Shown here one piece after another: positions 6,682 through 6,705 of a stretch of 11,820 nucleotides of DNA (within the stretch, counting starts at the first letter, position 1; each line of letters begins with the position of its first letter). The stretch is from a virus (Duplodnaviria; Heunggongvirae; Uroviricota; Caudoviricetes), in the IMG/VR virus record IMGVR_UViG_2690316131_000005; one strand, given 5' to 3'. The translations under genes and the position numbers were made by a program. Under the pieces are notes generated by a model. The model worked only from the letters and a program-made list of their open reading frames with translations, had not been told where the DNA came from and did not search any database.

Positions 6682-6705
6682 CCGATATGGGAATTCCCAT
6701 ATCGG
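6682..6705. repeat. perfect 24-bp palindrome CCGATATGGGAATTCCCATATCGG
   Basis: Exact reverse-complement symmetry read from the sequence, centred on GAATTC; lies between the moron stop and the predicted hok promoter; no U-tract on either side. Confidence 0.9.

Follow-up and report, generated by a model that had tools for sequence, protein, structure and literature searches.

A perfect palindrome upstream of hok in a lambdoid prophage: a probable remnant of a KilA-N gene at a mosaic junction

The palindrome and its surroundings in the prophage

The window, meaning the whole stretch of DNA analyzed here (11,820 nucleotides; IMG/VR record IMGVR_UViG_2690316131_000005), covers a region sharing 100% identity with PPompW, a lambdoid prophage of non-O157 EHEC, as well as with many O26, O111, O103, O145, and O121 chromosomes. 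Genes on the plus strand were ordered dicA/dicC, replication genes, DUF1627, paa, hok/sok, rem, DUF968, rusA, Q, and tRNAs. Neither the window nor PPompW contained a KilA-N or BstA gene. Past the Q antiterminator gene, two tRNA genes and one match to the STnc100 sRNA were found (10184 to 10256, 10350 to 10423, and 11200 to 11372), an arrangement typical of Stx-type lambdoid phages.

The paa gene (5804 to 6562, plus strand; SBP_bac_11 match), an AcfC-family adhesin moron, is followed by a terminator-like hairpin with a T-run (6569 to 6595). A REP-like hairpin (ATGCCGC GCCA GCGGCAT) was observed at approximately 6600 to 6617, downstream of the terminator-like hairpin (region 6569 to 6620). A second perfect inverted repeat, ATGTTGATTACA and TGTAATCAACAT separated by 4 nt, was found at 5612 to 5639, approximately 165 to 190 bp before the paa start codon, and may be an operator or other regulatory site of the paa moron. 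Farther right, the conserved 5' boundary of the hok cassette (6709 to 6750, plus strand) contains the promoter-like hexamers TTTGCT (6716 to 6721) and TAGGAT (6739 to 6744), which were read from the sequence and presumably form a promoter. These are followed by the hok mRNA leader/sok region (6751 to 6900, plus strand; Rfam RF01794, 103.9 bits) and the coding sequence of the HokD-type toxin (6898 to 7053, plus strand), which lies inside an annotated 70-aa gef/mok frame (6841 to 7053).

Between paa and the hok cassette lies a perfect 24-bp palindrome, CCGATATGGGAATTCCCATATCGG, at 6682 to 6705. Its exact dyad symmetry, described earlier in a reading made from the letters and their open reading frames (the sequence-only reading), was confirmed: the two 12-nt arms are 100% complementary, with a spacer of 0. 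On the minus strand, the palindrome contains the codons GAT ATG GGA ATT CCC ATA TCG, corresponding to D-M-G-I-P-I-S. It was the sole match to this sequence in the window at up to 3 mismatches, and none of 200 dinucleotide shuffles contained a match; the chance expectation for a spacer-free 12+12 palindrome in 11.8 kb was approximately 7e-4 (analytic). The whole PPompW record (44,350 bp) contained one copy at up to 5 mismatches and no half-sites elsewhere.

RNA folding predicted a stem of 10 to 12 bp on both strands (−21.2 kcal/mol for the plus strand and −19.4 kcal/mol for the minus strand; z of approximately −4.3). A stable stem-loop of the kind found in intrinsic terminators would thus form, and the U-rich tract that should stand directly 3' of it is absent: no T/U run followed the palindrome on either strand (plus strand, GCGAAAACGGTTTGC; minus strand, AATGAATTCAGTTCACC), and the bases adjoining the stem were GCGAAAACGG and AATGAATTCAG, respectively. 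The terminator scan of the window did not call the palindrome, in agreement with the sequence-only reading that an intrinsic terminator was unlikely, and Rfam at gathering thresholds assigned no family to this site in the window.

Position relative to hok/sok and the mosaic junction

The Rfam sok/hok-leader match begins at 6751; the palindrome therefore lies 46 to 69 bp upstream of the hok leader, with a gap of 46 nt from its right end at 6705, and its center is approximately 57 bp upstream of the putative hok start. The distance previously estimated (roughly 45 to 70 bp upstream of the hok mRNA 5' end) was accurate. The link to hok that this distance implied was not sustained. In a sample of 80 IMG/VR hok loci, for which the sole selection criterion was an identical encoded Hok protein, approximately 15 had the palindrome upstream, and in the remaining loci the promoter block AAAACGGTTTGC...AGTTAAGTAGAAT was directly preceded by other sequences. 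This block was kept upstream of hok with or without the palindrome. The conserved part of the hok cassette starts at AAAACGGTTTGC, to the right of the palindrome, and BLAST homology with other phage hok cassettes likewise begins to the right of it, at window positions of approximately 6709 to 6734. In one E. coli prophage, hok had been swapped for ibrAB-like genes and the palindrome was retained with one mismatch; in one hok-linked class of palindromes, half of the element was lost. Conservation with hok, the sok/leader region, and the promoter, as expected of an integral cis element of the cassette, was not observed, nor was the arrangement expected of an operator (a dyad adjoining the promoter and conserved with it), the palindrome being a single copy centered at approximately −57. 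The palindrome is not part of hok/sok, and we infer that at the PPompW locus it contributes to the expression of neither hok/sok nor paa.

To the left, two classes of flank, one with the paa moron and the other with a 34-aa small ORF, converge at GAACTGAATTCATT (6668 to 6681, no strand assigned), 14 nt left of the palindrome. This stretch is common to paa-type and small-ORF-type flanks, and homology between the contexts stops just leftward of it. Since the paa moron and the small ORF are alternative left flanks that meet at this sequence, the palindrome lies at a recombination or mosaic junction, which was one of the two possibilities raised in the sequence-only reading; the other, a dyad DNA site for a dimeric protein, is possible. 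The site is a mosaic junction without a consistent partner gene. Like other mosaic-junction remnants of the lambdoid nin region, it is a short conserved block at the meeting point of alternative modules (on the left, paa or the small ORF; on the right, hok or ibrAB-like genes). It differs from them in being a perfect palindrome of a kind that is conserved, with covarying arms, in an intact gene family; an internal constraint of this sort is lacking in ordinary remnants.

In other prophages, the palindrome starts 10 nt past the stop codon of the 34-aa hydrophobic small ORF, a place taken by paa in the window, and the left flank of one further locus (L192) was a diverged version of the small-ORF flank. 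The small ORF (MSDDISLAMEGALAVIAVVGVYCLVVFLMDRLGN; WP_001278450 family) preceded the palindrome at 2903 to 3007 in L003, 2912 to 3016 in L002, and 2906 to 3010 in L004. Variants of it were also observed upstream of hok without the palindrome, and the 34-aa frame is a putative gene. The small-ORF class that lacks the palindrome (“P-”) resembled, by eye, a further-decayed KilA-N remnant; the local alignment was not significant, and this assignment was rejected.

KilA-N genes, their intragenic palindrome, and orphan copies

The exact 20-mer core of the palindrome was present in at least 120 IMG/VR contigs. Among the contigs listed (at least 120), 72 contained it as lambdoid nin-region orphans, 26 contained it within KilA-N ORFs (Pfam PF04383, E = 4e-27) in the frame D-M-G-I-P-I-S, and 22 contained it in other contexts, at loci without a KilA-N gene. 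The family is referred to here as the KilA-N intragenic palindrome, as defined in the present analysis. The element at 6682 to 6705 has the sequence identity (20- to 24-mer) and the flanking homology in KilA-N sense orientation that characterize this family; it is not in frame within an intact ORF between the conserved LS and L(V/I) codons.

A full KilA-N gene was found in the E. coli phage vB_EcoS-613R10 (locus L285), where it occupies the part of the nin region bounded by the replication genes and Q and is encoded on the opposite strand; in the pR direction, its palindrome is 548 nt upstream of the hok 5' end. Its product, URE76544.1, carries the RefSeq annotation “KilA-N domain-containing protein.” At a second IMG/VR locus (L205), a sok match was located approximately 350 bp upstream of the KilA-N start, in divergent orientation. 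Compared to the vB_EcoS-613R10 gene, positions 6672 to 6712 of the window were identical at 36 of 41 nucleotides and collinear with the hok block (83%), with a local alignment score of 57 against a shuffled maximum of 31. This 41-nt fragment (minus strand) is homologous to codons ~56 to 69 of the E. coli phage KilA-N/BstA-like gene. The minus strand of the window reads FSPDMGIPISE*IQ, and the gene reads LSRDMGIPISELIQ; the fragment has a stop codon inside, has stops on both sides, and forms no ORF. By tblastn, KilA-N homology beyond the palindrome was detectable over only ~16 codons. An orphan variant (L010) matched the KilA-N gene at 37 of 44 positions, including the ELIQSFK codons. Based on these alignments, derivation of the palindrome and its flanks from an opposite-strand KilA-N gene is well supported.

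Given the stops flanking the fragment and the lack of a KilA-N gene in the window or PPompW, the palindrome was classified as an orphan, and the match of 36 of 41 nucleotides, collinear with the KilA-N gene, suggests a fragment that remained after deletion of the gene. As a single copy in a prophage with no KilA-N gene, it would be a fossil of approximately 41 bp of a KilA-N gene that was once antisense just upstream of hok. The KilA-N/BstA-like gene and the hok/sok cassette were also observed as divergent neighbors in E. coli phage nin regions (76 to 246 [minus] and 601 to 939 [plus] in L205; approximately 3315 to 3658 and 4001 to 4774 in L285), so that two accessory toxin/defense modules stand back to back.

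KilA-N genes were sampled by protein patterns, and the sample was therefore unbiased for codons. Dyad symmetry in these genes was kept by compensatory changes that also altered amino acids, with arm variants that included GATATCGGAATTCCGATATC (DIGIPIS), GATGCGGGAATTCCCGCATC (DAGIPAS), and CGAAACGGGAATTCCCGTTTCG (ETGIPVS); changes in the central 4 nt were uncompensated. In a second sample, seeded with a Bacteroides phage KilA-N sequence, the arms were wholly different (CCGTTAGG..CCTAACGG, CCAAAGTG..CACTTTGG, and GCCGAACTTA..TAAGTTCGGC, for example) and were found in the same codon register. Cyanophage KilA-N genes contained arms such as CGATATCG..CGATATCG. Arm length across KilA-N genes was 8 to 13 bp. 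Distant KilA-N genes carried unrelated strong palindromes in the same region; these included the genes of Klebsiella phage 2b (11-bp arms), Salmonella phage SPN3UB (13-bp arms, one mismatch), Pseudomonas phage D3, and Microcystis phage Mic1. No palindrome was found in that region of the KilA-N genes of Pseudanabaena phage Pam2 and Winogradskyella phage Peternella.

Covariation was quantified in a gap-free alignment of 55 distinct KilA-N sequences, which was centered on the best hairpin of each sequence and in which the flanking LS and L(V/I) codons still fell in register. Pairing was found in 86.7% of cells, compared to 66.1% in shuffles, and all 10 pairs showed changes on both sides. Double changes were found in 94 cells versus 23.2 in shuffles (a number reached in 0 of 500 shuffles), the covariation score was 0.503 versus 0.151 in shuffles, and slid registers paired at no more than 43%. 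The best-hairpin score was 7.8 for the genes versus 5.3 after synonymous recoding (P ≤ 0.05 in 33 of 64 genes), and the hairpin center was at one codon position in 43 of 64 KilA-N genes. G·T/G·U pairs accounted for 5 of 550 cells. The comparison of sense and antisense wobble (G·U versus A·C mismatches) gave 4 versus 8, which are few, nonindependent cases and not directional. Rfam, run in E-value mode on six KilA-N loci, assigned no family to the palindrome. The covariation and the scarcity of G·T pairs point to a DNA-level dyad element, which would fit them better than a typical RNA helix. Candidate DNA-level causes are a homodimer dyad site with diversifying specificity, a DNA hairpin or cruciform, and template switching that homogenizes the arms.

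The core encodes seven residues (S-D-M-G-I-P-I), which aligned to a gap in the yeast APSES protein Mbp1 (PDB 1BM8), between aligned stretches, and the palindrome-encoded stretch therefore behaves as an insertion. The position of the gap in the Mbp1 structure is presumably the turn between the two helices of the helix-turn-helix. Palindromic or inverted-repeat elements within protein-coding genes include the Rickettsia palindromic elements, and coding palindromes are known in mitochondrial genes of Nematomorpha (PMC6649704). As in those cases, dyad symmetry is kept inside an ORF, and the amino acids encoded by both arms consequently covary; unlike them, the KilA-N element is much shorter and, in many phage groups, occupies a single position of one protein domain, and its copies are not dispersed repeats. 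A further likeness is HK022 Roi, a nin-region DNA-binding protein for which Clerget and Boccard reportedly described, in 1996, a binding site inside its own gene. Both are nin-region accessory genes whose coding sequence contains a site for their own protein, which for KilA-N is a candidate site only, and Roi differs in belonging to another family (Bro-N/ANT type). No description of the element was found in the literature searched for this sequence, for KilA-N palindromes, and for BstA/aba work of later date; a paper on DdmABC/Lamassu and palindromes was considered as a description and rejected, as it concerns other sequences.

One contig (L179; minus strand, approximately 1394 to 2810) carried an AT-rich gene encoding C2H2 zinc fingers together with KilA-N and T5orf172/MUG113 domains, a combination typical of large eukaryotic DNA viruses. 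This gene contained the exact 20-mer along with a second copy in tandem that had diverged, DMGIPIPGISSLKSDMGIPIS.

In complete E. coli genomes, the orphan was found in 749 to 957 of 5,426 genomes and the intact KilA-N gene in 137 of 5,426, making the orphan approximately 6 times commoner. By BLAST, the palindrome was absent from 82% of complete E. coli genomes. Among genomes with any, the median was 4 BLAST places, and the places listed were intergenic or in KilA-N-annotated genes; a palindromic locus was probably counted on both strands, giving few loci per genome. The many dispersed intergenic copies per genome that characterize REP-like elements were not observed. The sequence-only reading had named a common genome-wide repeat with no positional link to this locus as the finding that would count against it. 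Half of this was borne out: E. coli had no such repeat, with few loci per genome, and yet the same 20-mer recurs across many unrelated phage contexts.

Orphans persisted in several flank contexts, with break points 10 to 45 nt away, and in most copies the dyad was perfect or nearly so. Of 118 orphans in a flank-anchored sample, 21 had a 1-nt deletion in one arm, and the largest class had a mismatched outer pair. All other changes in this sample were single uncompensated substitutions, and no compensated double changes were found in it. In the independently diverged orphan L010, arm pairing was kept by one compensated change. Orphan arms were identical to arms in circulating full-length KilA-N genes, and in one contig (L085), an orphan was located 5.8 kb from an intact KilA-N gene. 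The arm deletions, the mismatched outer pair, and the lack of compensated changes suggest relaxed constraint on the orphans, in favor of a fossil, as is the absence of the palindrome from most hok cassettes. Their 6:1 excess, their several flank contexts, their near-perfect copies, the compensated change in L010, and the co-occurrence with an intact gene in L085 would also fit retention by selection.

Candidate explanations for the orphan palindrome

The palindrome is probably an orphan fragment of a KilA-N gene, preserved as a fossil at a mosaic junction. The ancestral gene would have been an E. coli-type phage KilA-N gene with a BstA-like C-terminal half, located in the nin region, on the strand opposing the early-right operon and in divergent orientation to hok. 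Removal of this gene in the PPompW lineage would have come about through deletions and module replacements, with the paa moron or the 34-aa small ORF on the left and the hok cassette on the right, and approximately 41 bp centered on the intragenic palindrome would have remained. Palindromes can bias deletion end points and self-correct. The fossil may persist for these reasons, with end points of illegitimate recombination favored near the base of the palindrome and the arms corrected by intrastrand template switching. In intact KilA-N genes, the element would presumably act as DNA, in the form of a dyad site or a hairpin, and not as a typical RNA helix.

A functional role for the orphan has to be weighed against this fossil origin, and it involves BstA. 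BstA, a prophage-encoded abortive-infection protein whose N-terminal domain is KilA-N-like, blocks phage DNA replication and is neutralized by aba, a short DNA element inside BstA's own locus (Owen et al. 2021, PMC8585504). The aba element is homolog specific, acts in trans at high copy, and protects P22 once transplanted (Owen et al. 2021, PMC8585504). The C-terminal domain of E. coli-type KilA-N proteins whose genes carry exactly this palindrome matched the PADLOC BstA model (E = 3e-21). The palindrome and aba are therefore alike in being short DNA sequences lodged in the gene of a prophage KilA-N(-like)/BstA protein, and aba acts in cis and in trans on its cognate protein. By analogy, the palindrome may work like aba: the orphan would be a cognate dyad DNA site of KilA-N/BstA-like proteins that titrates or silences the defense protein of another prophage and so protects PPompW-type phages. 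The identity of the orphan arms to those of circulating full-length genes, the roughly 6:1 ratio of orphans to genes with survival in several contexts, the near absence of G·T pairs (as in recognition of double-stranded DNA by a homodimer), and the symmetric covariation expected from diversifying cognate specificity are all consistent with this role. Against it, the aba of BTP1 is a 63-bp element at the bstA 5' end (29 bp upstream plus the first 34 bp) that depends on terminal CCCGCC direct repeats (PMC8585504), whereas the present dyad belongs to the KilA-N domain region and no bstA-like gene is present in the window. BTP1 bstA was checked for an equivalent palindrome, and none was found; the element therefore cannot be filed as aba, from which it differs in sequence, position, and architecture, and it is not inside a bstA locus, only the ancestral or cognate full-length gene being BstA-like. 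The palindrome was also found in KilA-N genes lacking the BstA C-terminal domain, arms were deleted in 21 of 118 orphans, and one hok-linked class had lost half of the element. On balance, an aba-analogous function is a tentative alternative to the fossil, with perhaps a modest chance of being correct.

The other alternatives assign the palindrome to local expression. A stem-loop in read-through early-right (pR/nin) or antisense RNA, serving in processing or stability or as an insulation element that shields the hok mRNA, would draw on the stable hairpin predicted for both strands and on its location, 46 nt ahead of the hok leader and on the strand that is transcribed in the nin region, given that hok mRNA regulation depends on an exact 5' end. 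Such a role is improbable, as most hok cassettes at the same genomic position lack the palindrome, G·U pairs are almost unused in the family (unusual for an RNA helix), the wobble comparison was not directional, and Rfam gave no match. An operator through which a dimeric regulator acts on the hok promoter or the paa moron would explain a perfect dyad centered ~57 bp upstream of the putative hok start; it is very unlikely for an element that is missing from ~80% of hok cassettes with the same promoter block, occurs without hok and without paa, is present in a single copy with no half-sites elsewhere in the prophage, and has a sequence accounted for by KilA-N ancestry. The probability that the palindrome terminates paa or the upstream small ORF is close to negligible: the stem-loop is stable and, in other prophages, closely follows the small-ORF stop codon, but neither strand has a U-tract, the scan did not call it, paa already has its own hairpin and T-run (6569 to 6595), and the small ORF also exists without the palindrome.

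For this locus, a tempting link between the palindrome and hok regulation proved wrong, and origin as a KilA-N fossil at a mosaic junction would explain the site. For the family as a whole, a palindrome fixed at one KilA-N codon position was found in enterobacterial, Bacteroides-type, and cyanobacterial phages and in the one large eukaryotic-virus-like gene, an element for which we found no description. Since the E. coli versions are BstA-like and a cognate DNA element within the bstA locus switches BstA off, the palindrome is a concrete candidate for KilA-N “self” DNA recognition. In an extension of the aba analogy that is speculative and rather doubtful, the helix-turn-helix turn in the KilA-N genes of many phages might carry a self-encoded dyad “self” DNA tag of the protein, its arms diversifying along with the residues that they encode, with aba-like self-immunity or autoregulatory function, and orphans might be antidefense decoys. 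Orphans are in this respect candidates for a cheap, purely DNA-encoded counterdefense and, if the self-tag proposal were true, would enable lambdoid prophages to replicate where the host cell makes a BstA-like abortive-infection protein.

Three contigs contained the element in non-lambdoid or otherwise unusual surroundings. In L095 (approximately 6840 to 6930), a non-lambdoid orphan had the direct repeat GCAACCAATGCGCGCA on both sides, and in L103 (approximately 7040 to 7110), a non-lambdoid orphan was nested in a larger inverted repeat, GACGGTAATCGT...ACGATTTACCGTC. In the GC-rich contig L148 (approximately 13857 to 13920), the AT-rich 20-mer was followed 12 nt on by a related palindrome, ACGGGAATTCCCGT; both were inside a 435-aa ORF without a Pfam domain and resembled two adjacent dyad sites or insertions.
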